Shown here one piece after another: positions 5,276 to 34,006 of a DNA stretch of 40,908 nucleotides. A model generated the notes under the pieces. That model worked only from the letters and a program-made list of their open reading frames with translations, was not told where the DNA came from and ran no database searches. How positions within the stretch are numbered: position 1 is the stretch's first letter; every line of letters begins with the position of its first letter. Source of the DNA: a virus (Duplodnaviria > Caudoviricetes). Made by a program: the position numbers and the translations under genes. Location: the IMG/VR virus record IMGVR_UViG_3300031949_000090, positions 1 to 40,908 of that record; one strand, 5' to 3'.

Positions 5276-6436
5276 TCATCCCGCCGCGGCGACTCTGGAC
5301 GTCATCCGCAGGCTCATATCCTTCTCCAGTTGCCCCGCCGCCCGCACGCCCAGGCGCTCGCGCTGCAGGTCCTCCAGCATCTCCAGCGTGATCGCCCGGC
5401 CGTCGGCGCCGGGCTTGCTCATCAGCAGCCCGACCAGGATCGCCACCGTCCGCAGCCCGCCCATCTTGGGCTTGTTGCTCAGTTCCTTCAGATACTGCTC
5501 GGCCTCGCCCGTCGCCCGAACCTGCATGCCGGCCAAAACCTTGCGGATGTCATCGACGTTGTGCAGGCCGGGACCACCATCCGACCGGCTGGCGGCATAC
5601 GTCAGATCCAGCCACCACTTCACCCGGCCGTAGATCTGCTCCACGCTGTCCCGATCGTTGCGGGCCGTCTCGATGTAGTTGGCGATGTCGGCCGTGCCGA
5701 TCCAGAGCATGGGACAGCCGGTCAGATCGTGCAGGTCTCGCAGCGCGTGCAGGCCCTCATCCTTCTGCCGGCCACAGAGCTTGTGCACCTCATCCACGAT
5801 GATCAACCGGCCGGAGTCCTTCAGCAGCGTCACGAGCTGCTCCTGGAGCTGATAGCTGGTCAGCTTCAATCCGGTGAGCCGGAGCTGCTTGGCCAGCGTG
5901 TCATACACGGCCAGCTTGCTCATCCCGGCCGTGCTGATGCGCATCAAGACGCTGCCGGGAATCTCTCCGCGAAGGAACTGCGCCGTCATCGTCTTGCCGA
6001 TGCCGCTGGGCCCGTGGACGATGTAGATGCCCGGCTCATTGTGCCGCATGGCCATCTTGGCCACGCCGATGATCTCCAGCGCCGTCGTCGTCTTGACGAA
6101 GCGATCGTCCTTCGGGGCCGACTCGCGCGCGAGCTGGATCTCCGTCCACTTGTCGATCTGGCGGATGCGGCTCTCCGTGTCGCCGGCATAGTTCCCGCTG
6201 AGCACCTGGCTCAGCGTGGAGGGCTTGATGCTCAGCGATCGCGCGGCCCATCCCTCGCTCTTGCCCAGGCGGGCCAGCAGCTCGCGAAAGCGGGTGATGA
6301 TTGCGGTGGTCAATTCCGGCGTCAGTTCCTGGTCATCGCGCAGCATCCGTGCATCTCCTAAAAGCCTGGCTTCCGTCTCCAGGCGCTTGGACCAATGTTC
6401 AGGCAACGGCTCGTTGGCCTGGCGTGGGCGCATCAT
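5276..6436 (-). CDS. MuB-like transposition ATPase (AAA+ with N-terminal HTH)
   Basis: Walker A GPSGIGKT, Walker B LIIVDEVH; directly downstream of MuA. Confidence 0.93.
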   Translation of the reverse strand: MMRPRQANEPLPEHWSKRLETEARLLGDARMLRDDQELTPELTTAIITRFRELLARLGKSEGWAARSLSIKPSTLSQVLSGNYAGDTESRIRQIDKWTEIQLARESAPKDDRFVKTTTALEIIGVAKMAMRHNEPGIYIVHGPSGIGKTMTAQFLRGEIPGSVLMRISTAGMSKLAVYDTLAKQLRLTGLKLTSYQLQEQLVTLLKDSGRLIIVDEVHKLCGRQKDEGLHALRDLHDLTGCPMLWIGTADIANYIETARNDRDSVEQIYGRVKWWLDLTYAASRSDGGPGLHNVDDIRKVLAGMQVRATGEAEQYLKELSNKPKMGGLRTVAILVGLLMSKPGADGRAITLEMLEDLQRERLGVRAAGQLEKDMSLRMTSRVAAAG

Positions 6437-8565
6437 CAGTCATCCTCCGCGAAAGCGGCCAAGGTCGGACTGATCGTTCTCTCCATATGCTCGCGCCCAC
6501 GCCCATGCCCGCGCCCGCGGGGGCTCATGCCCTCCGCCCCCGCGGCCCGGCGGAGCATCTGATGATCGTCATTTGACTGCCCCTCGAAGCCCGTTCGAAC
6601 CGGGCGTAAAGTGGGCGTCGGCGGCTCGGGAAGCGGGCTTTCGGCCGAGCGCCGGCGCGACTCGGCCAGGGCATCCTCCACCAGCAGCTCCGTGGGCGAA
6701 TCGATCCGCCGCATGCCCCGCGCCTGGACGGCGGCCAGGGCCTTGTTGTGCTCCTGCATCTTCCGATACGCCGCGCGGTACTGCGGCTCATCGGTGGTAT
6801 CGAAGATCTCCCGGCCGGTCATCTGCACCGTGCAGATGCGATGCTGGCCGGCGTAATGCCAGACCTGGCAGCAGGTGACATCGGCCGGGTCGTAGGCGAC
6901 GATCACCTTCTGCCCGAGCAGCGGGCGAAGGGCCGGATCGCCCCGGCCGTAGTTCCGGCCCGCGAAGGTGAGGCCGTTCTTGCCCACCTTCAGCCCGTCC
7001 TTGCCGCCGCCGGCGAAGCGCAGCAGGCACACATCCAGTGCCTCCATCGTCAGCAGGTTCTTCACCGTCAGGCACTGCTCGTAGATCTCATCGGGGCTGC
7101 GTCCGCCCATGCCGTCGCCGGTGTGCTCCTGGGCGTGATAGGCGCCGTCGAGCCACGCCGTCGCTTCGGCAACATAATCCTCGAACGTCGGCACGCGATT
7201 GGTCTTGAGCACATCCTTGAGCCGCTCGGGCTTGCGGTGGGTCGCCCCGCCGGTGTAGGTGGGGGTGAAGACGCCGAATTGTTCTTCGAACGTGCCGAAG
7301 AACGGCTCGATGCACTTGGCTTTGGGGTTGAACGGCCGGGCGTGGAGCTGCTTGATCCCGAGCAGGCCATAGACGCCGCGGAAGCGTTCCAGGTCGTTAT
7401 CAATGTGGATGCGTTGTTGCCGCTCCTTCTTGGTCTTGCCATCCCAGAACCACGCATCGTAGTCTTTTCCGTTGTCGGTGTAGGCGTGTTCCGGCCGGCA
7501 CATCTGGGCGCGGATGATGCCATCGCGCAGGGCCAGTAGGACGGTCGACGAATCCGGCTCGATGGGGCTGAACGCCCGGCCGATCAGCTTGCGGCTGCGG
7601 ATGTCCAGCCAGCCCGTGAGCCACGGCCGGATGATCTTGCCCTTGTAACTGACCAGCGTGTCGCAGATGTGGTGATCGCCGACCCAGAGGTCGTGCGTCC
7701 GCATGTCCCGCTCGATCGTCTGGCCATTCTCCGAGACGCGGATGCGGGTGAAATCCCGCAGGCAGGAAGCCGCGCACAGATCATCGAACGCCTTCTCGCC
7801 CTTCCGCGCCCGCGTCCACCGGCCAAGCTGCGTCTGCTTGAGCATCTGCGCATACCGCCGGGCCGAGCGGGCCGAGGGGATGGCCAGGCCCAGCTTGCGG
7901 GCCTCGGCCCGGGCCAGCCGGTAACACGCCGTTGGCGATGGCTCGCCCTCCTCCAGCATCCACTTCTCCAGCAGCGGCCAGAAATCGGCGAAGGGGGAAT
8001 CCTCGCCGCCCTTGGTGCCCGCCCGCCGGCCGTCCAGCAGTCCCTGGCAGCCGGCCCGTTCGAACTTCGCCGTCCAGCGATCGAGTGTCCTCGGCGCCAC
8101 GCCCGGATGTTTCACCAGGAACTCCGCCGCCGCCTCGTCTTTGCGCTGGGCCGCCGCCCGCGCCCGCATCTTCATCCACGCCAGGACGATCGCCAGCCGG
8201 CCCTGGGCGACGGACCGGCTGGGCTCGGGGACGGCGAGCCAGTCGAATTTCGCGGCCCGCTCTTCCGGTGTGCCGGCGAAGTTCTTCAGCCGCGGATCGG
8301 CGTGTTCGGAGACCTGCCAGACGTCCAGGCCGAACCGATCGGCCTTCCGCGCCAGCGCCCGATCGGACAGATCGCCCAGGCATTTATTCCGCATCGCCCC
8401 CACTGTGATCCCCGCCAGGCGGGCGGCATCGTCGATCCAGATCCAGCGGCAGCCGTTGGAGTAGTCGGCGACCTCGGCGCCCGCGCCCGCGCCCAGACGC
8501 ATCCGGGGGAAAGCAACCGCAGAGGCCGCAGAGATCGCAGAGGTTGGGGGGAGGTCATTGGTCAT
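6436..8565 (-). CDS. MuA-like DDE transposase
   Basis: WVGDH, YTDNGKDY, PKAKCIEPFF catalytic pattern; HTH N-terminus; C-terminal V.YDP.D Mu transposase domain. Confidence 0.95.
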   Translation of the reverse strand: MTNDLPPTSAISAASAVAFPRMRLGAGAGAEVADYSNGCRWIWIDDAARLAGITVGAMRNKCLGDLSDRALARKADRFGLDVWQVSEHADPRLKNFAGTPEERAAKFDWLAVPEPSRSVAQGRLAIVLAWMKMRARAAAQRKDEAAAEFLVKHPGVAPRTLDRWTAKFERAGCQGLLDGRRAGTKGGEDSPFADFWPLLEKWMLEEGEPSPTACYRLARAEARKLGLAIPSARSARRYAQMLKQTQLGRWTRARKGEKAFDDLCAASCLRDFTRIRVSENGQTIERDMRTHDLWVGDHHICDTLVSYKGKIIRPWLTGWLDIRSRKLIGRAFSPIEPDSSTVLLALRDGIIRAQMCRPEHAYTDNGKDYDAWFWDGKTKKERQQRIHIDNDLERFRGVYGLLGIKQLHARPFNPKAKCIEPFFGTFEEQFGVFTPTYTGGATHRKPERLKDVLKTNRVPTFEDYVAEATAWLDGAYHAQEHTGDGMGGRSPDEIYEQCLTVKNLLTMEALDVCLLRFAGGGKDGLKVGKNGLTFAGRNYGRGDPALRPLLGQKVIVAYDPADVTCCQVWHYAGQHRICTVQMTGREIFDTTDEPQYRAAYRKMQEHNKALAAVQARGMRRIDSPTELLVEDALAESRRRSAESPLPEPPTPTLRPVRTGFEGQSNDDHQMLRRAAGAEGMSPRGRGHGRGREHMERTISPTLAAFAEDD

Positions 8566-11867: not shown

Positions 11868-13250
11868 TCAGCTCTCCTTCCTTGGCCTGGCCAGGTGCGC
11901 CTTGATCCATCGCTTGCTCGCCTCGGCGACGGCGGGATCGATCTCGATGCCGACATATCTCCGGCCCAGCGCCAGCGCCGCCCGGGCTGTGGTGCCCGTG
12001 CCGTGGAAGGGATCGAGCACCATTTCGCCGGGATTGCTGGCGGCCAGGATGATGCGCTTGACGAGAGCGGCCGGCAGCTGATTGACCGCGCGCTTGTCGG
12101 GGATGCGCTCGGCGGCGTTGTCCACCAGGCGGGCGAGCTTGCGGTCCGTCCACGCGCCCCACACGTTGCCCGGCAGCTTGCCGTCGCCATCGGCGCGGGG
12201 GTCTCCGTTCTCGCTGCGCCAGCTCGGAACGTAGATCCGCGTGTCATCGTGATGGAACGTGAAGTCGGTCGGGTGGACCGTGTAGTGGTGGATGACGCGG
12301 TAGCAGTCGGTCCAGGAGTGGGGGTTGTGCGAGCCGAAGCTCTCGGCCCAGATGATCATCTCCTGGCGGTGCAGGCCGTTGGCTCGCAGCAGCGCGCCGA
12401 CGTCCTCGGCGTAGCGGCTGGACATCATCACGAACACGCTCGCGTTCGGCTTGAGCACGCGCGGCAGCCGAGTGATGCAGCCGGCGACGATCTCCATCAA
12501 CTGATCGCGCGAGAGGTTGTCGTCGAAGCCGTTGTACTTCTCGCCGATGCCGTAAGGGGGATCGGTGAAGACCAGGTCGATGGAGTTGTCGCGGATCTGC
12601 TCCATCACCTTGCGGCAGTCGCCGACCAGGATGCCGCAGGATTTCTCATCGAACTGCACCGGCCCCGCCTCCTCGGCCGCCTTCTTCCATTGCTTGGCCT
12701 TGGCGGCGCGCTGTGTCTGTCGCTTGGCCTGGGGCAGCGTCATCCGGCCTTCAAACACCTGTCGGAAGATCTTCTTGTCCCGCTCGAAAACGGCGCGGGC
12801 GTCGGCAACGTAGCGGCCGCTGACCCCGAACAGTTCCCCAACCTGATCGCGGGCCCTGCCGTTGTCTGACCCTGTGGAAATATTTCCACACCCCCCGCTT
12901 TCCATGCGGAAAAGGGCCAATTTCTCAAAATGAGGCAGCATGCTCACCGCCGCCGCGGCCTTCTGGCTTTCGGTCATGTTGCGGTGCACGGCTTTGGAGT
13001 AGACGAAGGCCAGGGCTTCCGCATCCGTCTTGGCTTTGGCGGTGATCGTCGGCAGGGCGATGCCCGTCTCGATCGACACGCGGAGGCGGTTGCGGCCATC
13101 CAGCAGCTTGCCCTGGTAGAGAACGGCCGGGTCGGTGAACGCCTGGGCCCGGAGCACGTCCGCCTTGAGCGCGGCGTAGTCGGCCTCGCCCATCATCGGC
13201 AGCAGCTCGGCGAAGGGATGGGGCTGAAGATCACCGTTTGACTTGCTCAT
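11868..13250 (-). CDS. ParB-like N-terminal domain fused to beta-class N6/N4 DNA methyltransferase
   Basis: HPFAELLPMM..LLDGRNR (ParB-like); DPPY motif IV followed by VLDPFHGTGTT motif I. Confidence 0.9.
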   Translation of the reverse strand: MSKSNGDLQPHPFAELLPMMGEADYAALKADVLRAQAFTDPAVLYQGKLLDGRNRLRVSIETGIALPTITAKAKTDAEALAFVYSKAVHRNMTESQKAAAAVSMLPHFEKLALFRMESGGCGNISTGSDNGRARDQVGELFGVSGRYVADARAVFERDKKIFRQVFEGRMTLPQAKRQTQRAAKAKQWKKAAEEAGPVQFDEKSCGILVGDCRKVMEQIRDNSIDLVFTDPPYGIGEKYNGFDDNLSRDQLMEIVAGCITRLPRVLKPNASVFVMMSSRYAEDVGALLRANGLHRQEMIIWAESFGSHNPHSWTDCYRVIHHYTVHPTDFTFHHDDTRIYVPSWRSENGDPRADGDGKLPGNVWGAWTDRKLARLVDNAAERIPDKRAVNQLPAALVKRIILAASNPGEMVLDPFHGTGTTARAALALGRRYVGIEIDPAVAEASKRWIKAHLARPRKES

Positions 13251-13286
13251 GACTCGTCCTTGTCGCTTACAATCCATCGCGCGGTA

Positions 13287-13958
13287 TCATTGGCCCGATG
13301 GGCACACCTCTAATTGATCAGATCGTCGAGGACGCTTCGGTCCGCCTGTTCGGTCCCGATCACGCGCGGCTTTTCGGTGGCGCTGAACCTCTCGAACTGC
13401 ACGACCTAAAACCTCGGGAACGTCGATCGTTCGCGCTGGGCCTGAAGAAGAATCTGCGCTGCTCGTCGGATGATGAATCCCTGGCGTTCTGGACGCACAT
13501 GCCATCCGCGTGGTATCCGCACAAGCTCTTCCAGCTTCGCCTGGCGTATCGGTGCCTGCGTCACGTTCTGGAGCTGGCGGAGAACCCGCGGGGCGATCGG
13601 GAGATTTTCTCGCTTCTGGCGGATGTACGGGCGGCGGGGAGAAGCATCCCGTTACACTCAGGCTTGACAGCGATCCGACTGGTTCTGGATCGAATAGAGA
13701 GAACGGGCGAGATTGAGCGGTGGCTGAAACGCACGCAGCGTAGACGGTCCTGAGCAGCATGACGCTGATGTGCGGCTGGGGCACGTTGCACGCCAGGGCG
13801 AGGATCGCCTGCAACTGGCCGGGCTTCATGCCGAAGTGCAGGGCGTGCATCAGCCACGCTTCAGCCTTGGCGTGAACCAGCTTGTCGCCGACGATGGCCG
13901 GCATCTTCAGCCAGGCCAGATCCCGCAGCGGTCGAACTTCATCGTTTCGCTTGCTCAC
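13287..13958 (-). CDS. Hypothetical protein; 3' two-thirds antisense to 13298-13753
   Basis: AGGAG RBS before GTG 13958; N-terminal 70 aa are protein-like, remainder low-complexity. Confidence 0.45.
   Translation of the reverse strand: MSKRNDEVRPLRDLAWLKMPAIVGDKLVHAKAEAWLMHALHFGMKPGQLQAILALACNVPQPHISVMLLRTVYAACVSATAQSRPFSLFDPEPVGSLSSLSVTGCFSPPPVHPPEARKSPDRPAGSPPAPERDAGTDTPGEAGRACADTTRMACASRTPGIHHPTSSADSSSGPARTIDVPEVLGRAVREVQRHRKAARDRDRTGGPKRPRRSDQLEVCPSGQ
13298..13753 (+). CDS. Counter-oriented hypothetical protein (probable leaderless moron)
   Basis: TATCAT (-10-like) 7 nt before ATG; globular helical composition. Confidence 0.6.
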   Translation: MGTPLIDQIVEDASVRLFGPDHARLFGGAEPLELHDLKPRERRSFALGLKKNLRCSSDDESLAFWTHMPSAWYPHKLFQLRLAYRCLRHVLELAENPRGDREIFSLLADVRAAGRSIPLHSGLTAIRLVLDRIERTGEIERWLKRTQRRRS

Positions 13959-14205
13959 CGTTCGCTCCTTTGAGTCTGCGTTGCCTCTCCGCTTCGCCGG
14001 CCGCGATGATGGCCATGAACTCCGCCGCCGTCTCTCCGGGCTGGGCGATGTACAGATCCAGCAGCTTGCCGTGGGTGCGATACCACCAATCGTGAAATCG
14101 GTTGGGGTGTACGTGCAGGGCATCCGCCGCCCGCTGCGTGTCGAACAGATAATCCGCGCGGCGATCCTCCGTGATCGAGCCGATTCTTCGCTCGATCGAT
14201 CCCAT
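13939..14205 (-). CDS. Hypothetical protein
   Basis: GAGGA RBS before ATG 14205. Confidence 0.5.
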   Translation of the reverse strand: MGSIERRIGSITEDRRADYLFDTQRAADALHVHPNRFHDWWYRTHGKLLDLYIAQPGETAAEFMAIIAAGEAERQRRLKGANGEQAKR

Positions 14206-14324
14206 GAAAGTCCTCAATTAACGATGCCGTTAGTTCACCCCCCAGATGGTCGGCGACGCCGCTGCATCCGCCGGATAGGCTGCTCAGGATGGATGCTCGA
14301 TTGCCCATAACCTTCGCGTTGGAT

Positions 14325-14627
14325 TCAGCCGGCCTTGCGGCGGCGGTGCTCGGAAAAGCCCGCGGGGCGGGCGGCGGGATTCTCTTCCCGCCGCCGCCCT
14401 CGCGTGGCCGTCAGAAGTTCACGCTCTACGTCTTCGCGCTCGATGCCCAAAGCCCGCGCCAGCCGAACGACGTTGTGGCCGCGGATGTTGGGCCTCGCCT
14501 GTCCAAGCCACACGCGGAGGGTCCAGTAGGAGATGCCCGCGTTGCGGCAGAATTCAGACTGATCCACGCCGAGATTCTCGATCTCTCGTTTGAGCCATTG
14601 ACCGAAATGGACAGTTTCGACCGCCAT
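14325..14627 (-). CDS. Cro/Ner-role XRE HTH regulator, first early gene
   Basis: HFGQWLKREIENLGVDQSEFCRNAGISYWTLRVW; divergent from the repressor. Confidence 0.85.
   Translation of the reverse strand: MAVETVHFGQWLKREIENLGVDQSEFCRNAGISYWTLRVWLGQARPNIRGHNVVRLARALGIEREDVERELLTATRGRRREENPAARPAGFSEHRRRKAG
14354..14409 (-). terminator. Intrinsic terminator/attenuator-like hairpin within the 3' end of the cro-like gene
   Basis: GCCACGCGAGGGCGGCGGCGGGA-AGAGAA-TCCCGCCGCCCGCCCCGCGGGC followed by TTTT. Confidence 0.6.
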
Positions 14628-14636
14628 GATGCACCG

Positions 14637-14665
14637 AGGGTAATATCGCCCATTAGCGTTGTCAA
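14637..14665 (-). promoter_or_regulatory. Early promoter (sigma70-type)
   Basis: TTGACA-N17-TACCCT, 9 nt before the cro ATG. Confidence 0.75.
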
Positions 14666-14733
14666 GCGTTAATTGGTGATTTTTATTTGCGGCGATTGTC
14701 AGGGAGAGGTAACGTGCGTCCGGTCCGCCCTTT

Positions 14734-15498
14734 ATGGAACAAAGGCACTTCGGAAAATTTCTGCGCCAGGCGGTGGAACGATCGGGTATGCGGAAGAAAG
14801 ATGCCGCCGCCAAGATCGGCGTAGAGGCTGTAACCCTGCGCGCCTGGTTCAACAGCGCAGCGCCGAATATAAAGCCGGAAAGCCGCGTGAATCTTGCGAA
14901 ATTCCTCGGCATTTCTCCGGCGGATTTGGAGGAGCGGCTTCGGCAAGCGATGCTGCACGATCCGGCGACGCAGAAGCGCTGGGCCGCACAGGAGCGGGCG
15001 GTGCGAGAGGGCGGCCACAGCATTCACGATCAGGTCGCCGCGGGGGCTCCGATCGGCGAGGACGAAGAGGAGGAGCCTGACCGCAGCGTGGAGCCGTACA
15101 GCGAGATGAAGGTCCCGGAGATCCCGCTGTTCGAGCTGTCCCTGGCCGCCGGGCCGTGGGTGGATGTGGAGGGCGTGGGCCACCGCGAGGACCTGCTGGT
15201 TTTGGAAGAGCCGCGCTTCCGCGTGCGACTGGCCGGCGATTCAATGCAGCCGCGCTATCGCAGTGGGGCCGTGGTCGAGTTCCGCACGATCATGCCGGAT
15301 GACATCGAGGTGGGAAAGGATTATTATGTGCAAAAGAGCGACGGGACGGCCACGTTCAAGCGGGTGGCCGGTATGGATCAGGAGGGCCTGACGCTGGCGG
15401 CGATCAACAAGCGCAAGTACCCCAAGCCGTTGCGGGTGGTCTGGCAGGAGTTCGCCCGCGCGGCCCGGGCGGTGGCGATTGTGGAACTGATCGACTGA
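14734..15498 (+). CDS. CI-like repressor (XRE HTH plus S24 peptidase)
   Basis: N-terminal HTH; LAAG cleavage site, GDSMQP and ATFKR catalytic Ser/Lys. Confidence 0.92.
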   Translation: MEQRHFGKFLRQAVERSGMRKKDAAAKIGVEAVTLRAWFNSAAPNIKPESRVNLAKFLGISPADLEERLRQAMLHDPATQKRWAAQERAVREGGHSIHDQVAAGAPIGEDEEEEPDRSVEPYSEMKVPEIPLFELSLAAGPWVDVEGVGHREDLLVLEEPRFRVRLAGDSMQPRYRSGAVVEFRTIMPDDIEVGKDYYVQKSDGTATFKRVAGMDQEGLTLAAINKRKYPKPLRVVWQEFARAARAVAIVELID

Positions 15499-15510
15499 GC
15501 ACAGGAGGCC

Positions 15511-16350
15511 GTGATGATTCGGTGTGCCGTGATCGTGCTGATGGGTTGCGCCGTTTGTATGGCGCAAGTCGGGACCGAGGAGGCGTACGAGCGGCTGCGG
15601 CGGCGACAAGCCGAGCGAGAGGCACGGGGGGAAATGCCGACGACACGGCCCGCTCCCCGACAGAAAGAGGCTCCGGGGCCGCCGCCGCCAGCGGCGCCAA
15701 CGCCGGCGCCGGCAGAGCCGACAGACACTGGGATCGGCATCTTCCCGGTTGCCGATGGACTTGTGCGCGTTCACTATTTGTCGAAGCTGGTTTATTTGGG
15801 AGCCCGCACTGAACCGTACTACGGATTCATCTCCGCGAGCTATCGCGATTCCGGCGGCGTCCAGGACTCGATCGCCGGCTTCTTCCGCGTCTCCGGCAAG
15901 CCGGAGAAACTCGATATTCGAACGACCGACGAGCGCATCTTGACCATCGTCGAATCGCCTTCGGTTGGCCAGGGCTTTTCCTTCCTGAATGAAGGCGAAG
16001 TGATCGTCGAAATTCGGTTGGCCAGTGTTGTAGCGAAGATTCCCATACGGGTTGTTCGCCTGCCGTTTAGCGAGGGCGACTCCACGGATCAGATCGTGGA
16101 GCTGATCGGGCTGCCGGATGGCGTAAAGCAGGTAACCGTGTCCTGGCCAAAGACGAAACAGGTTGATGAAATCACCTACATGCCCGATGCCGCACAGCGG
16201 GTTGCCCACGCCCAGCATTGGCGATGGAAAAGTCATCCGGGATTGGTCGTCGCGATTGTTGACGGGAAAATTCGGACGATCAGAACGAGCCCGGAGCGAG
16301 ATATTCACGCCTGGGTTGCCGACGAGATGCGATGGATACGAGGCCAATGA
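15511..16350 (+). CDS. Secreted/periplasmic hypothetical protein co-transcribed with the repressor
   Basis: AGGAGG RBS; signal-peptide-like N-terminus; Pro-rich PTTRPAP linker. Confidence 0.75.
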   Translation: MMIRCAVIVLMGCAVCMAQVGTEEAYERLRRRQAEREARGEMPTTRPAPRQKEAPGPPPPAAPTPAPAEPTDTGIGIFPVADGLVRVHYLSKLVYLGARTEPYYGFISASYRDSGGVQDSIAGFFRVSGKPEKLDIRTTDERILTIVESPSVGQGFSFLNEGEVIVEIRLASVVAKIPIRVVRLPFSEGDSTDQIVELIGLPDGVKQVTVSWPKTKQVDEITYMPDAAQRVAHAQHWRWKSHPGLVVAIVDGKIRTIRTSPERDIHAWVADEMRWIRGQ

Positions 16351-16369
16351 TTTTTTCTGATGTTGGCGC

Positions 16370-16397
16370 TTGACATCGCCGAAGAGGTCGCTAGCGT
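16370..16397 (+). promoter_or_regulatory. Sigma70-type promoter
   Basis: TTGACA-N16-TAGCGT. Confidence 0.6.
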
Positions 16398-16402
16398 AAG
16401 AA

Positions 16403-16525
16403 GGATCGTGGTGGCTTGGCCGTCAGAAGCGTAGCCGCCGCGAGAGGAAAAAATCGAAGTCAACAAGCCCGCGGGGACCCTCGTCATAAGAGACAGTCGG
16501 TCTGCGCGGGCGTTGTCATTTTTGA
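16403..16525 (+). ncRNA. Candidate ~120-nt two-hairpin small RNA
   Basis: Promoter upstream; 11-bp stem 16406-16416/16433-16443 with 16-nt loop; second stem 16463-16516 followed by a T-rich tract. Confidence 0.5.
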
Positions 16526-16813
16526 TTTTAGAGTTTTGATTTTTGATTGCAAAATCGAAAATCGGAAATCGGAAATCGAAAATCCAATTCCCGCCGCAGA
16601 CCGGCCCTACGGAAGGGTCCGGCGTGATGGAGCACGAAGAGGCGAGGCACGAAGGCACGAAGGCAGCAGGCACGAAGGGTGCGCTGGTGTCAGTGGCCAG
16701 TTGCCAGTTGCCAGTTGCCAGGGCGACGGCGGGGTCGCTGCGCCGGGCCCCTCGCATCATCGGCCGGGACGGCCGGGAGCTGCACTTCGACCCGCAGCGG
16801 TTCCTGGAGCTGG

Positions 16814-17203
16814 TCAAGGCTGATTCAGACGCGACTCGGCGATCAGAAGCCCATCGTGGACCAGACACACCAGCATTGGCCGAGCCATTAAACTCCGGGC
16901 CAGGACTGCGAGCTGCGATTCATCGGCACTGTCGATCGCATCCCCCATCATGTGCAGCGCCATCCGGCAGTAAGTCACCTGTTCCGGATCGGCGTTCTCA
17001 CAAATCCAGTGGCGGAAAGCGGCGTCGTTGCGGATCTCCTGAACTGCTGACCGAGTTTGTCGAGCGCCAGTCTTCGTCGGAACAAACGACGGCGAAAGCG
17101 CATCGGCGAACCGCCAAAGCACCTGGGGGAAAGCGGCCATCCGCAGGCCCTGGATCACGCGCTGCATCTGGCTCCGCACGTCGGGAGAGGGGGAATCGCT
17201 CAT
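16814..17203 (-). CDS. Counter-oriented hypothetical protein
   Basis: Helical composition; upstream 42-bp block duplicated in front of 17272-17658. Confidence 0.6.
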   Translation of the reverse strand: MSDSPSPDVRSQMQRVIQGLRMAAFPQVLWRFADALSPSFVPTKTGARQTRSAVQEIRNDAAFRHWICENADPEQVTYCRMALHMMGDAIDSADESQLAVLARSLMARPMLVCLVHDGLLIAESRLNQP

Positions 17204-17271
17204 GAGTGCATTCTCCCCGATCCGGGCCATCAATCAAACGCGCCGCGGCGGAAGGGGGGCGGCGATGATCG

Positions 17272-17658
17272 TCACTCCAACTCCCCCACGTGCCTGGCCA
17301 TCATCTCAAGAGCTGTGCGAACCTGGTCGATCGCTGCTGGCGCTGATGCGAGATGAGTCCGAAGCGAACGCACCTCGTCGTCGGGAGCTGAGAGCGCTAC
17401 TGAGTGGTGGAACTGGAAGCAGTGCAGAATCAGCCGCACGTCTTCAAGCGTGGCACGCTCGCTGGCGAAGTATCGAAGCTCGGGATCATCGACTAATTGA
17501 TCTAGTTTCGCGAGTAACAGCAGCGGACTGGCAGGCCGCGTTGGTTCGAGCTCGATCAGCCGCTGAACGGCGTATTCCAGCGTCGCTGGCAGGACGGATC
17601 GGCAAAGCTGCAAGATGCGCGTGGCGCATTCTCCGCGGATGTCAGGGGGTGTGCTCAT
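17272..17658 (-). CDS. Counter-oriented hypothetical protein
   Basis: Leu-rich helical composition; shared upstream TTGATT-N16-GAGAAT / GGGGAG block. Confidence 0.6.
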   Translation of the reverse strand: MSTPPDIRGECATRILQLCRSVLPATLEYAVQRLIELEPTRPASPLLLLAKLDQLVDDPELRYFASERATLEDVRLILHCFQFHHSVALSAPDDEVRSLRTHLASAPAAIDQVRTALEMMARHVGELE

Positions 17659-17973
17659 GCTGACATTCTCCCCGATTCCATTGGTCAATCAAACCGATCG
17701 ACGCCCCGGCCGGCCGATACTGGCGCGCCCGGACGGGCAAAAGAGGCCGGCGGCGCGGTCGGGGTCGAAGAAGCGGTCAGCGATCAGCGATCAGCGATCA
17801 GTTCAAGTACTACTGAGATTCACCACACCCGACGCGGCTGTGAGTGCTGCCAGTGAGTGGGCGCCGGCGGACCTAGGACCGTCGCGAGAGGCCGGCCGAA
17901 TGGGCGACGCGGAAGCCCGAGAACATGCCCAGGACATCGACGGCAGGCAGAACACGGCGAATTGTTTTCACCG

Positions 17974-18005
17974 GGCGGCTGATCCGCGCAGCCGCCGCGT
18001 TTTTC
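17974..18005 (+). terminator. Terminator-like hairpin upstream of the lysis genes
   Basis: GGCGGCTG-ATCCGCG-CAGCCGCC then GCGTTTTT. Confidence 0.45.
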
Positions 18006-18147
18006 CCTTCGAACCTTACTACGGGTGCCGAAACCACCGGGCCGGGAGTTTTCGAAAGCTCCCGGCCCGAGTGGTGGGCCATAAACAACCCAATCTTCAC
18101 CCTCGGCGATCTCTGCGTCTCTGCGGTGAATCTTCCCGGAGGTCCGC

Positions 18148-18375
18148 ATGAACACCCTTCAATTGATCCTGCGCAGCCGCAAGGTCTGGGTCGCCCTGGG
18201 CGGTTTGGTCATCAGCATCCTGGCGACGCTGGGGATGGACAACTGGGAGCCGGTCGTGATCGCCGCCGTGGCCCTGGCCGGCATGGTGATCGGCGGGATC
18301 GCCTATGAGGATGGGCAGCAGAAGGGCCGGGACGTGATTGTGCATGCGACGGATGAGATCGCGGAATCGAACTGA
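18148..18375 (+). CDS. Putative holin (2 TM)
   Basis: GGAGG RBS; SRKVW followed by two hydrophobic helices; first late gene. Confidence 0.65.
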   Translation: MNTLQLILRSRKVWVALGGLVISILATLGMDNWEPVVIAAVALAGMVIGGIAYEDGQQKGRDVIVHATDEIAESN

Positions 18376-18412
18376 CAAGGTGACAAGGTGAGGGGGTGAC
18401 AAGGTGACAAGA

Positions 18413-18709
18413 ATGAAACTGGCAACGCACAACTCGCAACTCACAACTCGCCGGGAAACCGGCATCTGGCATCTGGCGGCTCTGCTGCTGGCGATCGCAC
18501 TCCTTCTGGTAGCGGGCGGCTGCGCCGATGGATCGGCGCAGTCGGCCCGTTTGTTCGCGGCCCAGAAGCTGTGGGGCGCCATGGGCCCGGAGTATCGCGA
18601 TTACGTGGCGGCGGACGGGCAGCTCGATGATGAGTCGAAGGCCATTCGAGGAAGAACTGCCGACCTCATGGATGAGGCCACGCAGCAAGTGACGAGTGGA
18701 AAGGACTGA
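18413..18709 (+). CDS. Lipoprotein, possibly spanin-like
   Basis: Hydrophobic stretch ending LLVAGGC lipobox; lysis position. Confidence 0.6.
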   Translation: MKLATHNSQLTTRRETGIWHLAALLLAIALLLVAGGCADGSAQSARLFAAQKLWGAMGPEYRDYVAADGQLDDESKAIRGRTADLMDEATQQVTSGKD

Positions 18710-18769
18710 GGACTGAGTGGCGGGATTCCCAACTCAGTCCTCAGTCCTGAGCAACTTTTAACTCTGACC
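18695..18769 (+). repeat. GACTGAG/CTCAGTC hairpin element, copy 1
   Basis: AGTGGAAAGGACTGAG...CTCAGTCCTCAGTCCTGAGCAACTTTTAACT; near-identical copies at 34789 and 35119. Confidence 0.9.
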
Positions 18770-18777
18770 GGCGAATC

Positions 18778-19095
18778 ATGAACGACGACATGTACCTGAG
18801 CGAGATCAAGACGATCCTGGCCGATGCTCTGGCGATGATGGCCGGCGAGCCGCGGGAGGCCAAGGCCGAGTACGCGGCGTTCATCGCGGAGATCAGCCCC
18901 CAGATCGGCCGGTACGCCGCCGCGGCGGCGGCGGGCGAGCCGCGGGCGGCGGATACGCTGCGGCATCTGGTGGCTCAGGCGGAGGCCAAGGCGGCGGTGA
19001 TGCAGATCGCGGTGACCAGCGCATCGCAGCAGGCCCTGGGCCAGGTGATCACGGTCATCGGGCTGGCGGCGGCGCGGTGGCTGATGAAAATCTGA
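18778..19095 (+). CDS. Hypothetical Ala-rich protein with hydrophobic C-terminus
   Basis: Phage-like codon usage; lysis region. Confidence 0.7.
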   Translation: MNDDMYLSEIKTILADALAMMAGEPREAKAEYAAFIAEISPQIGRYAAAAAAGEPRAADTLRHLVAQAEAKAAVMQIAVTSASQQALGQVITVIGLAAARWLMKI

Positions 19096-19102
19096 GAACA
19101 AT

Positions 19103-19285
19103 ATGGCCTATGTAGGAACCATAAACGTCGAAGTGAGACTCGCATGGTGGTTTCCATTGATCCTACTTTGCGCTCGCGTGTTCCTACTTTGCGGCGCTTC
19201 GGTGCACTCGTCATCGTTACATAGACTGTTTCGCCTTTGCTCCACGACGCGCATCGTTGGCTTCGGCCGGAAGGGGCGGGCGTAA
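19103..19285 (+). CDS. Small hydrophobic hypothetical protein, lower GC
   Basis: TAATG overlap with the next gene. Confidence 0.4.
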   Translation: MAYVGTINVEVRLAWWFPLILLCARVFLLCGASVHSSSLHRLFRLCSTTRIVGFGRKGRA

Positions 19286-19659
19286 TGGAATTCCGCGACG
19301 TGCTCCAGGCGGTCATCTTCGTCGTGCAACTGGCCATGGGCGTGCTGATGAAGAAGTTGTCCGACCAGCAGAAGCTGATCAAGGAGGGCAACCGGGAGCG
19401 CGATGAGGCCATGCGGGCGCTGGTGAAGGCCGAGACGCGGCTGGAGGTGTCGAGACTGGACGGCCCGATGAACCGGCTCACATCGGAGCTGGAGCACGTG
19501 GGCCAGCGGTTGAGCCGCGGCGACGGCCGGTTCGATCTGCTGACGGCGAACGATCACAAGGTGGAGATGGATTTATTGACCAAGATCGCGGCGATGCAGG
19601 AGAAAATGGCGACGCGGGATGACCTGCGACTGCTGCGCGAGGAGATCAAGCGCGGATGA
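19285..19659 (+). CDS. Membrane-anchored coiled-coil protein (Mu gp25/DUF2730-like position)
   Basis: N-terminal TM plus coiled coil; synteny. Confidence 0.65.
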   Translation: MEFRDVLQAVIFVVQLAMGVLMKKLSDQQKLIKEGNRERDEAMRALVKAETRLEVSRLDGPMNRLTSELEHVGQRLSRGDGRFDLLTANDHKVEMDLLTKIAAMQEKMATRDDLRLLREEIKRG

Positions 19660-29429: not shown

Positions 29430-30548
29430 ATGGCCAAGATCATTTTAGTCACGGGAGATCCACGATCGGGCACGAGCCTGATGATGAACATCCTCATTGC
29501 GCTGGGGATCGGCGTGGTCGGCGAGAAGTTTCCCATGGAGGCTAGGCTTGCCAAGGTCCTGAAGGAGAATCCCGGCCTGCCCCAGCGAACGATCGACCAG
29601 CTTCAGCGGCGAATCGATCACGCCAAGACGATGAACCCGATGGGCTTCTGGGAGGACGGGCGGATCGTCACGCGCGGCCTCAAGACCGTGACGCCGGAGC
29701 AAGGCGGCAAGGCCGTGAAGATCATCACGGCAGGCGCCTGGCTTCGCCCTACCGGCCGGGGCACCGATCCCGCCTGCTACGACAAAGCGATTCTGTGCCT
29801 GCGCGATCCCCGCTCGGTAGCGGTCAGCCAGGAGGATCTGATCGGCGGCGCGGAGATCGCGGGCTTCGGGGCCTGGGAGTTTCCCAAGTTGCCGCAACGT
29901 CCCAATCGGTATCTGTCGGGTACAGGCATGTTCGCCCGCTGGCTGGCCGATCAGCCGCAGACGACGCGGGACCGCTTTCTCCCTGTGGATTACGACCAGC
30001 TTTGCTCGGACCCGACCACTCAGATCCGCCGGATCGTCCAGCATCTTGGGCTGAACCGCCCCGACATCGCGCCGGCCGTCGCGATGATCGACACGAACCT
30101 GCGACGATCGCAGCCGGCCGACTTCCCGGAGAACTTGGCGATCGATGGGGCGGTCGCGATGCGTGTCTATCAGGCACTGAAGAGCGGCGACGATCTGTTG
30201 GTCGCCAAAGCCGAGGTGGCGGCCGAGATCAGCCGACAGCGCGAAGAGGCGGCCGGCTGGATCGATACAGAGTACGGCACGCTTGTTCGCTGCAATGCCG
30301 ACCTGGCCCGGAGCCTGGCGGTGAACAGCAAGGAAGTCCGGACCAAGCTACTTGCGACGGCCGCGTCCCTGGACTACCGACGTTCACCCTACTACGGCGG
30401 CGAGAGCGACCAGACCTACACGATCAAGCGGGCGGCCGACCTGGGAGATCTGACGCGCAAGCGCGTCATCTGCACGCATGAGCGGTTCGCCGGCGAGCAC
30501 ATGACGATCGAGCATTTCGCTGAACTTTTCCGGCGGAGGTTTAAGTAA
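29430..30548 (+). CDS. Sulfotransferase-family protein
   Basis: 5'-PSB loop VTGDPRSGTSLMM, 3'-PB LRDPRSVAVS, VDYDQL..DP...IRRI..HLG. Confidence 0.8.
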   Translation: MAKIILVTGDPRSGTSLMMNILIALGIGVVGEKFPMEARLAKVLKENPGLPQRTIDQLQRRIDHAKTMNPMGFWEDGRIVTRGLKTVTPEQGGKAVKIITAGAWLRPTGRGTDPACYDKAILCLRDPRSVAVSQEDLIGGAEIAGFGAWEFPKLPQRPNRYLSGTGMFARWLADQPQTTRDRFLPVDYDQLCSDPTTQIRRIVQHLGLNRPDIAPAVAMIDTNLRRSQPADFPENLAIDGAVAMRVYQALKSGDDLLVAKAEVAAEISRQREEAAGWIDTEYGTLVRCNADLARSLAVNSKEVRTKLLATAASLDYRRSPYYGGESDQTYTIKRAADLGDLTRKRVICTHERFAGEHMTIEHFAELFRRRFK

Positions 30549-33095: not shown

Positions 33096-33527
33096 ATGAA
33101 CGAGCATCAAAAGACATTCGGCATCACGCTGTTCTACGGCGCGGCCGGCGGGGCGGCGGGGACGGCCCTGGCGGGCATCGTCGGCATCGACGGACTGCCG
33201 GACCTGGTCTTCGACGAGACGGAGATCACGGAGCTGGACCAGGCGAACAAAATGAAGCAGTGGGCGCTGAGCGTCGCCGACGCCGGCAATCTGGGCGTCA
33301 CACTGGCGATGAAAAACGGGACGCTGACCACGCTGCTGGCCATGGCCGACACGGTCGATCGGGCCTGGAAGATCGCATTCATCAGCGGCTCGACGCTGAC
33401 CTTCGAGGGGCCGCTGAAGCGTGTGGGCCTGGCGGGCGCGAGCGGGGCCAACAGCGTGATCAACGTGCCGATCACCGTGCGCGTCAATTCGCTGCCGGTG
33501 TACACGCCGTTTACGCCGCCACCGTAG
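33096..33527 (+). CDS. Tail tube (major tail) protein, copy 1
   Basis: ITELD....KQW...VADAG.L.VTL...WKI.F...TLTFEG pattern. Confidence 0.8.
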   Translation: MNEHQKTFGITLFYGAAGGAAGTALAGIVGIDGLPDLVFDETEITELDQANKMKQWALSVADAGNLGVTLAMKNGTLTTLLAMADTVDRAWKIAFISGSTLTFEGPLKRVGLAGASGANSVINVPITVRVNSLPVYTPFTPPP

Positions 33528-33583: not shown

Positions 33584-34006
33584 ATGAACGAGCATCAAAA
33601 GACATTCGGGATCACGCTGTTCTACGGAACGGCCGGCGGTGCCGCGGCGACGCCGCTGGCGGGGATCGTCGGCATCGACGGCTTGCCGGACCTGGTCTTC
33701 GACGAGACGGAGATCACGGAGTTGGACCAGGCGGACAAGATGAAGCAGTGGGCGTTGACCGTGGCCGACGCCGGGACTCTCTCTGTCACGCTGGCGATGC
33801 GCAACGCCACGCTTACGACGCTGCTGGCTTTGGCCGACACCGTCGATCGGGCCTGGAAGATCACGTTCAGGAGCACCGCGACGCTGACCTTCGAGGGCCC
33901 GCTGAAGCGCGTCGGCCTGGCGGGAGCGAGCGGGGCCAACAGCGTGATCAATGTGCCGGTCACCGTGCGCGTGAATTCGCTGCCGGTGTACACGCCGTCG
34001 GCGTGA
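33584..34006 (+). CDS. Tail tube (major tail) protein, copy 2
   Basis: About 89% aa identity to copy 1 over the first 138 residues. Confidence 0.8.
   Translation: MNEHQKTFGITLFYGTAGGAAATPLAGIVGIDGLPDLVFDETEITELDQADKMKQWALTVADAGTLSVTLAMRNATLTTLLALADTVDRAWKITFRSTATLTFEGPLKRVGLAGASGANSVINVPVTVRVNSLPVYTPSA

Follow-up and report, generated by a model that had tools for sequence, protein, structure and literature searches.

How does a phage express an operon that runs into genes pointing the other way? The question is posed by a segment of a 40,908-nt viral sequence (positions 1 to 40,908 of IMG/VR record IMGVR_UViG_3300031949_000090; the window), in which two small minus-strand genes, M1 and M2, lie between co-oriented plus-strand genes and are crossed by a chain of plus-strand ORFs. 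The window is a Mu-like transposable phage. It encodes a Mu transposase (6436-8565), a MuB-type ATPase, GemA and a Mu gp27-like small terminase (Pfam and PHROG matches); its early genes are transcribed leftward and its late genes rightward, and a CI-like repressor (14734-15498) is followed by small and large terminase, portal and head genes, again by Pfam and PHROG. A Logan contig is identical to the window over 12800-18402; it possibly represents the source sample and hence serves as an assembly check only. The sole relative with a named host is L015 (= G001), a prophage in a Phycisphaerales genome, and this host carries a Rho gene.

The chain consists of three ORFs. P1 (16624-17205, +), which can start at GTG 16624 or ATG 16627 behind a GGAAGG-like Shine-Dalgarno (SD) sequence, has its first ~60 codons outside M1 and the remainder antisense to that gene (16814-17203, -). 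P2 (17202-17663, +) spans the predicted M1 promoter and the whole of M2 (17272-17658, -). P3 (17657-18151, +) spans the predicted M2 promoter and then 450 nt without genes, in which a terminator-like hairpin (17974-17996) lies, and runs onto the first late gene (18148-18375, +). The ORFs are joined by an ATGA overlap between P1 and P2, ATGCTGA between P2 and P3, and ATGA between P3 and the late gene. These coordinates, junctions and the nesting of the two M genes agree with the initial annotation. That annotation had also drawn attention to a CATG palindrome supplying an ATG to both strands. It is indeed present at both junctions but unremarkable, as 113 of the 237 called ATG starts (48%) have CATG, and 32 of the 237 have TCATG; moreover, both junctions sit in a duplicated 42-nt stretch and are therefore not independent. 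The first late gene encodes 75 aa with two hydrophobic segments and has a coding score of 0.66. It had been called the holin; no holin family matched it in Pfam or PHROGs, where the only hit was a weak, unrelated Pfam one, and we call it holin-like by its size, hydrophobicity and position at the head of the late genes.

M1 (129 aa) and M2 (128 aa, about 20% identical to M1) are real paralogues in an unnamed family of helical proteins of ~130 aa. M1 has homologues at about 50-52% identity, and a profile search returned 13 proteins, 12 M-family members and one repeat protein. The paralogy is supported by hhalign (E = 1.4e-4 over 116 columns), and M2 scores E = 1.6e-14 with a profile built from outside proteins alone. 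The family alignment gave a seven-helix AlphaFold2 model with a pLDDT of 95; fold and family searches returned no significant match to a known family or fold. The best structural matches (Z 5.6, rmsd 2.9, 80 aligned residues; Z 4.8, rmsd 4.1, 102 aligned) fall within the range common among helical proteins. The second, weak match is PDB 1mw5, the orphan protein HI1480 of Haemophilus, which is probably encoded in a Mu-like prophage. An R-N-x5-H string in M1 had suggested a HEPN protein; this was rejected, the residues not being conserved. The converse reading of the locus, that the plus-strand ORFs are the genes and the minus-strand ORFs their shadows, could draw on the orientation of the plus-strand ORFs, shared with the late operon, and on their SD sequences. 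Conservation, the confident fold and the database gene calls nevertheless all belong to the minus-strand proteins, and the codon-position pattern fits them too, the second position being the most conserved. The M1 homologues, the profile search and this pattern refute that reading, to which we assign virtually no probability.

A duplicated element precedes both M1 and M2; it has promoter-like hexamers at a distance of 6 nt from the ATG. The predicted M1 promoter (17210-17237, -) reads TTGATT-16-GAGAAT, and the predicted M2 promoter (17665-17692, -) is its duplicate. In sequence comparison only, the -10-like position is conserved in six genes that have such an element. The spacing from the M1 promoter to the ATG is of the leaderless type, although a GGGGAG overlaps the promoter. 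M1 and M2 are accessory genes with predicted promoters of their own, pointing against their neighbours; from their genomic position, one might guess at a lysogen-stage role in exclusion or defence.

Around G001, a search of 401 genomes at class level and 141 at order level found the M family in one genome each, the same genome both times; it was absent from the GenBank phage set searched, and scans of viral contigs with M1, M2, L, A1 and P0017, both as single proteins and as alignments, returned no relatives. Before counting, we left out the window itself (L011), a second record of the L015 sequence (L013), short spurious matches (L014, L016, L017), the repeat protein (P0011), near-duplicates of L005 and L007 (L006 and L008, respectively) and hits to a sequence pattern (L032-L035). 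One of the last, L033, was also rejected as a member: it scores E = 0.019 on its own selection motif, shows no apparent relationship outside it and contains 3 stops in the register discussed below. Two clear M-family paralogues, about 15% identical, lie in L012, a 2.4-kb contig (1-2414) on which four small genes stand in tandem, every one preceded by a repeated module of promoter and hairpin; the contig looks like an expanding cassette array. Remote members are suggested by weak profile matches among 2,788 six-frame ORFs, namely the first L012 gene (E = 0.009) and a gene of the G001 early operon (E = 0.018). Gene L of the window (13298-13753, +; 151 aa), which lies backward within the early operon, is possibly another: its match to M2 is weak both by BLASTP (E = 9e-5) and by profile (E = 0.8 in the same ORF set). 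It has no SD sequence, and a TATCAT stands 7 nt before its ATG.

Is the open plus strand more than an accident of base composition? Where the first codon positions of the two strands face each other, the register is 123:132 in the notation of PMC2174442. The overlaps of M1 and M2 are both in this phase, and so is that at 13.3 kb, where gene L lies opposite a minus-strand ORF (13958-13287); the claim that all three share one register, distinct from the in-register frame, was thus borne out. 123:132 is the stop-richest antisense register of this phage, with stops at 290 of 8,169 codons against 58 of 8,193 in register. In 24 ordinary genes, it has 0.0355 stops per codon, compared with 0.0217 and 0.0071 in the other antisense registers, and among 5,097 windows of 129 codons, 144 contain no stop in it. 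Codon shuffling predicted 4.8, 3.8 and 4.1 stops opposite M1, M2 and L, respectively, and none was observed (P = 0.003, 0.010 and 0.008; 0.008, 0.045 and 0.089 when the order of amino acids was kept). A shadow ORF of a GC-rich genome was rejected as an explanation, since the open frame is 123:132 and the in-register frames contain 2 (M1), 6 (M2) and 4 (L) stops. The entire chain, from upstream of M1 to the holin-like gene, arose under a strict rule in 1 of 6,000 simulations with synonymous permutation and in 33 of 6,000 with phage codon usage; under a loose rule it arose in 26 of 3,000. We regard the open plus-strand chain as almost certainly a real feature under selection.

The initial annotation would have been contradicted by frames interrupted in relatives. 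The core M-family genes for which DNA was available number six (M1, M2, two in L012 and one each in G001 and in L028 of G405). Their pairwise identity is 15-52%, they occupy late-leader, early-operon and tandem-array positions, and the 123:132 frame is stop-free in all six, even between members diverged to <20% identity. The same register is open in gene L, in the remaining two L012 genes and in one backward gene each of the G001 early operon and of G002. Over eight genes, shuffles predicted 32.1 stops and none was seen; three further genes likewise have none. Among 148 ordinary co-oriented genes of 80-200 aa, only 4 have this frame free of stops. A second line of evidence comes from the proteins. 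In 123:132, a stop is unavoidable wherever Phe precedes Ile, Met, Thr, Asn or Lys, whatever codon is used, and in 11 M-family proteins lacking DNA this dipeptide class was never seen where 8.06 were expected (P = 1e-4); in 363 called proteins used as control, 530 were seen against 520.5 expected. One of the 11, P0016, is also represented by DNA, namely by L028. The open-frame and dipeptide P values are not independent, the family members being related, though deeply diverged. In a wider survey, a mechanically defined class of nested genes had 7 open among 16. Operon genes that are themselves split by nested ones had diluted this class, and for this reason a hand-curated list of counter-oriented genes from five Mu-like records was used. 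All 11 genes on it have some operon-strand frame open; this is the case for 75 of the 148 ordinary genes.

These numbers bear on the possibility that the frames are open merely through high GC, codon bias and the pattern of amino acids in M, and were inherited from one ancestor with no ongoing selection. The genes with open frames are indeed related, a GC content of 65% yields many long spurious ORFs (268 of at least 60 aa in the window), and with amino-acid order fixed P is 0.05-0.5 for M2, L, the second and fourth L012 genes and the L015 gene taken singly. Against this, the open register is the stop-richest one and is rarely open in the control genes, the family has diverged below 20% identity, and in eight genes the stop-forming codon pair was used at none of 79 opportunity sites. 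In addition, the dipeptide avoidance holds in independent proteins, and the SD sequences and ATGA junctions recur. We therefore consider a mere by-product very improbable. The shared register itself is best explained by common ancestry of the cassette; most stops in 123:132 are removable by changes silent in M.

Restart signals accompany the open frame. The restart ATGs of M1, M2 and the G001 gene are each preceded by an SD-like tract whose strength matches that of the top 0-2% among 97 control genes with CATG starts. This tract is the complement of Pro-containing codons at the N-terminus of the M family; for P2 it is a purine-rich stretch (17184-17195, +) complementary to the N-terminal Ser/Pro codons of M1 and on a par with the top 2% of the controls. 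In G001 the antisense ORF ends at the same TCATGA junction as in the window, and the ORF after it crosses non-genic DNA for 285 codons and enters the first late gene in frame; the whole chain was reproduced in 2 and 5 of 6,000 strict-rule simulations. That late gene (L015 6668-7999, minus) is lipoprotein-like, and its 285-codon upstream extension starts from the CATG of the M gene. On the minus strand of L012 there are five ATGA links, and one of these uses a linker of 21 codons that spans a hairpin. Where the backward gene lies in an early operon (window, G001 and L028), the antisense frame extends an upstream gene at its C-terminus; the ORF of the window (13287-13958, -) has ~70 coding-like codons and then a non-coding-like extension through all of L, the codon score falling from positive to about -0.9 where L begins, and stops in ATGA right before the methyltransferase gene. 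Unrelated cargo shows coupled open chains too, though more weakly. In G405 a single 453-codon ORF (13773-15134; L030) crosses three backward genes, one of them ribbon-helix-helix-like by eye, together with their promoter, all in a single register, and overlaps the first late gene by an ATGA at its end; as a late chain it is weak (444 and 99 of 6,000 strict-rule simulations; 1,217 of 3,000 under the loose rule). In G004 most of the leader, which contains no backward gene, is covered by a coupled ORF of junk-like character; this case is weak too (599 of 6,000). The G002 chain ends 23 nt short of the next gene and fails the coupling rule, and the antisense ORF of L028 has no terminal restart overlap. 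In G003, L005 and L007, no late-leader chain exceeded one real gene; at this position G003 has co-oriented genes, L005 has a divergent layout, and the L007 leader appears interrupted by a transposase-like gene. The ribosome relay proposed in the initial annotation gains from the recurrence of ATGA-coupled chains and from frames that stay open in relatives, but the chains of G002, G405 and G004 are weak or short.

Are the plus-strand peptides themselves products? The locus had been described as dual-coding. If this is understood as functional plus-strand proteins, the data do not support it: with a codon model trained on this phage, P1, P2 and P3 score -0.45, -0.63 and -0.27 bits per codon, where training genes range from 0.07 to 0.72 and M1 and M2 are near 0, and 12 distant M pairs show no excess antisense identity (z -1.2 to 1.4). 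The antisense peptides consist to 54% of Ala, Arg, Ser and Pro and are fused to different upstream sequences in each phage. P1 had no Pfam, PHROG or Atlas match, and its N-terminal 64 aa matched only dispersed low-complexity repeats. The antisense peptide is probably not functional. True dual coding, with the antisense ORF specifying for instance an M inhibitor or an extension of the upstream early gene, still has points in its favour. The 123:132 register gives both proteins the most freedom, and a functional antisense pair is reported from a transposable phage, olg1 and gene 10 of Fc02 (PMC9936078). Furthermore, three close M1 homologues have an antisense amino-acid identity of 0.32-0.34 against a null of 0.22-0.24 (z about 3), an excess of 0.09-0.10 compared with 0.024 +/- 0.027 in 38 control pairs, of which the highest is 0.08. 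From these three close pairs, a weak constraint on the antisense peptide is possible. Four-fold sites are 43-57% identical, inside the control range, which counts against dual coding, as do the distant pairs, the composition and codon scores of the peptides and their unrelated upstream partners. We judge dual coding doubtful.

What would the chain then be for? In our preferred reading, to which we give a probability of about 0.6, the stop-free, coupled plus-strand ORFs act as a translated spacer, an anti-termination relay that would shield the operon transcript. The transcript would start upstream of P1, either at a promoter at 16370 or by read-through from the repressor operon; ribosomes would enter at P1 and start anew at P2, at P3 and at the first late gene, and their coverage would block Rho loading and may override the hairpin at 17974-17996. 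As a likely consequence, the M genes would be on in the lysogen and silenced once the operon transcript runs across them; this silencing during lytic transcription is proposed by analogy with phage 80alpha (PMC11087260), and the mutual exclusion of lysogenic and lytic transcription put forward in the initial annotation is likewise putative. Shielding from Rho by ribosomes is established, uncoupled translation exposing Rho sites and silencing downstream genes, and Rho suppresses antisense transcription (PMC12360218). The chains over non-genic DNA (P3, G001, G004) are in keeping with translation itself, and not a product, being what is required. The relay region lacks the bias of C over G typical of Rho sites (C 0.30, G 0.33), and a late promoter could lie between M2 and the holin-like gene, in which case the chain would be unnecessary for the late genes.

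A related possibility is that the chain is translated mainly for the operon polymerase to win head-on collisions and thereby shut the M promoters, or else to feed ribosomes to the first late gene, and less to prevent termination. P2 and P3 pass directly over the M promoters, the L012 stops are located in promoter-proximal repeats, promoter collision regulates the noncontiguous operon of 80alpha (PMC11087260), and polymerase processivity has been linked to interference in a preprint (10.1101/2020.09.23.310730). On the other hand, the holin-like gene has a strong SD sequence of its own, and junk-like coupled ORFs also cover a leader without a backward gene, albeit in the weak case of G004. This possibility overlaps with the translated spacer and is compatible with it; as the main purpose of the chain, we find it unlikely.

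A start for the transcript is suggested by a sigma70-like promoter just after the repressor operon (16370-16397, +; TTGACA-16-TAGCGT), found in our own consensus scan and scoring below the threshold of a promoter-tool scan. TTGACA-type sites occupy the same position in G002 and, by eye, in G405. The site is a candidate start for the transcript crossing M1 and M2, the role it was given in the initial annotation; more obviously, it would drive a structured RNA complementary to the early leader. This RNA candidate (16405-16530, +) contains exact copies of early-leader sequence, 16417-16429 matching 14405-14417 (13 nt) and 16465-16476 matching 14356-14367 (12 nt), and would for this reason be complementary to the early leader transcript. 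The folding z of 16400-16620 is -6.8, mostly from a long hairpin. Rfam gave no family at gathering score for the candidate, and no C4 or CI family up to E = 5 in 13000-19500. The RNA may work like P4 CI and P1 c4, as an antisense immunity RNA. By eye, L028 has the same pairing between its RNA segment and its own leader. A long low-complexity inverted repeat with no assigned strand (16495-16606) is a possible terminator for both the small RNA and the M transcripts.

Several known systems resemble parts of this arrangement. As opposite-orientation genes between co-oriented ones, M1 and M2 have the layout of noncontiguous operons. In the ith/tha operon of 80alpha (PMC11087260, PMC11034616), a small backward gene with its own promoter lies inside a longer temperate-phage unit, as M1 and M2 with their predicted promoters may do here, and the two parts of such operons can be expressed in alternate life-cycle stages. 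The layouts are alike; in the present phage, co-transcription is putative. The accessible portions of those papers describe no conserved coupled open frame opposite the backward gene, and the word 'translated' is absent from the main text of the atlas. In the ambigrammatic narnaviruses (PMC8316113), a reverse ORF that has no known homologues is kept free of stops despite great sequence divergence, and its function has been proposed to be translation as such, as we propose here. Those are eukaryotic RNA viruses with an in-register frame over the whole segment, whereas the present case is a gene family of dsDNA phages in the 123:132 register, coupled to its neighbours by starts and stops. ATGA overlaps (PMC2174442) and the proposed shielding by ribosomes (PMC12360218) are shared with ordinary translational coupling, in contrast to which the units coupled here seem to be spacers without a product, lying antisense to real genes. 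Fc02 olg1/olg2 and gene 10 (PMC9936078) also belong to a transposable phage, in which a gene expressed in the lysogen lies antisense to one of the early operon; in that phage, exclusion activity is reported for olg1 and gene 10 alike, whereas our operon-strand product looks unconstrained and its frame is part of a chain. Finally, the P4 CI RNA and Gifsy-1 IsrK-orf45-anrP (PMC4825925) combine a constitutive promoter, a small RNA heading a longer transcript and downstream genes that need translational coupling. Our RNA candidate, complementary to the early leader, would be similar; it has no Rfam match, and the portions of that source available to us do not describe those transcripts as crossing backward genes. 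The literature searched, which includes few subscription papers and no supplements, nowhere describes spacer ORFs coupled across backward genes of a phage. The contribution of this locus is one gene family carrying an open frame in the stop-richest register, together with a restart signal, to different genomic positions.

Such a family could be a portable, self-contained and non-polar cassette, with its own promoter on one strand and an open frame, ribosome-binding site and restart codon on the other; we put this at slightly below an even chance. If true, the M cassette drops backward into early and late operons and multiplies in tandem while downstream genes are still expressed, and the open-frame constraint is strong enough to ban a class of dipeptides from the M protein. 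If the translated-spacer reading is correct, selection can preserve an open frame simply because it is translated, in a family diverged to less than 20% identity, and long conserved antisense ORFs need not be protein-coding. It would also add a layer of translation to noncontiguous operons and explain how backward accessory genes persist in long operons of phages without evident antitermination. Cassettes of this kind would have a signature recognizable in sequence, with no Phe before Ile, Met, Thr, Asn or Lys and no xTC, xCT or xTT codon before a codon starting with A.

Other features of the window were seen in passing. A minor head or head-morphogenesis gene (277-1828, minus) is not grouped with the head genes but closes the early-strand operon, a position that G001 and G002 appear to share. 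The DNA methyltransferase (11868-13250, minus) has an N-terminal extension of ~200 aa that is ParB-like by eye and has no Pfam hit. A sulfotransferase-family gene (29430-30548) follows a beta-helix protein within the block of virion genes, and two near-duplicate major tail protein genes (33096-33527 and 33584-34006, both phrog_158) stand in tandem. Short low-complexity tandem and inverted repeats with units of 7-8 nt abound in intergenic DNA, for instance at 16495-16606, 16690-16720, 17775-17800, 18373-18450 and 18695-18750; possibly REP-like dispersed elements, they are also common in other contigs of the sample, where they give depth peaks.
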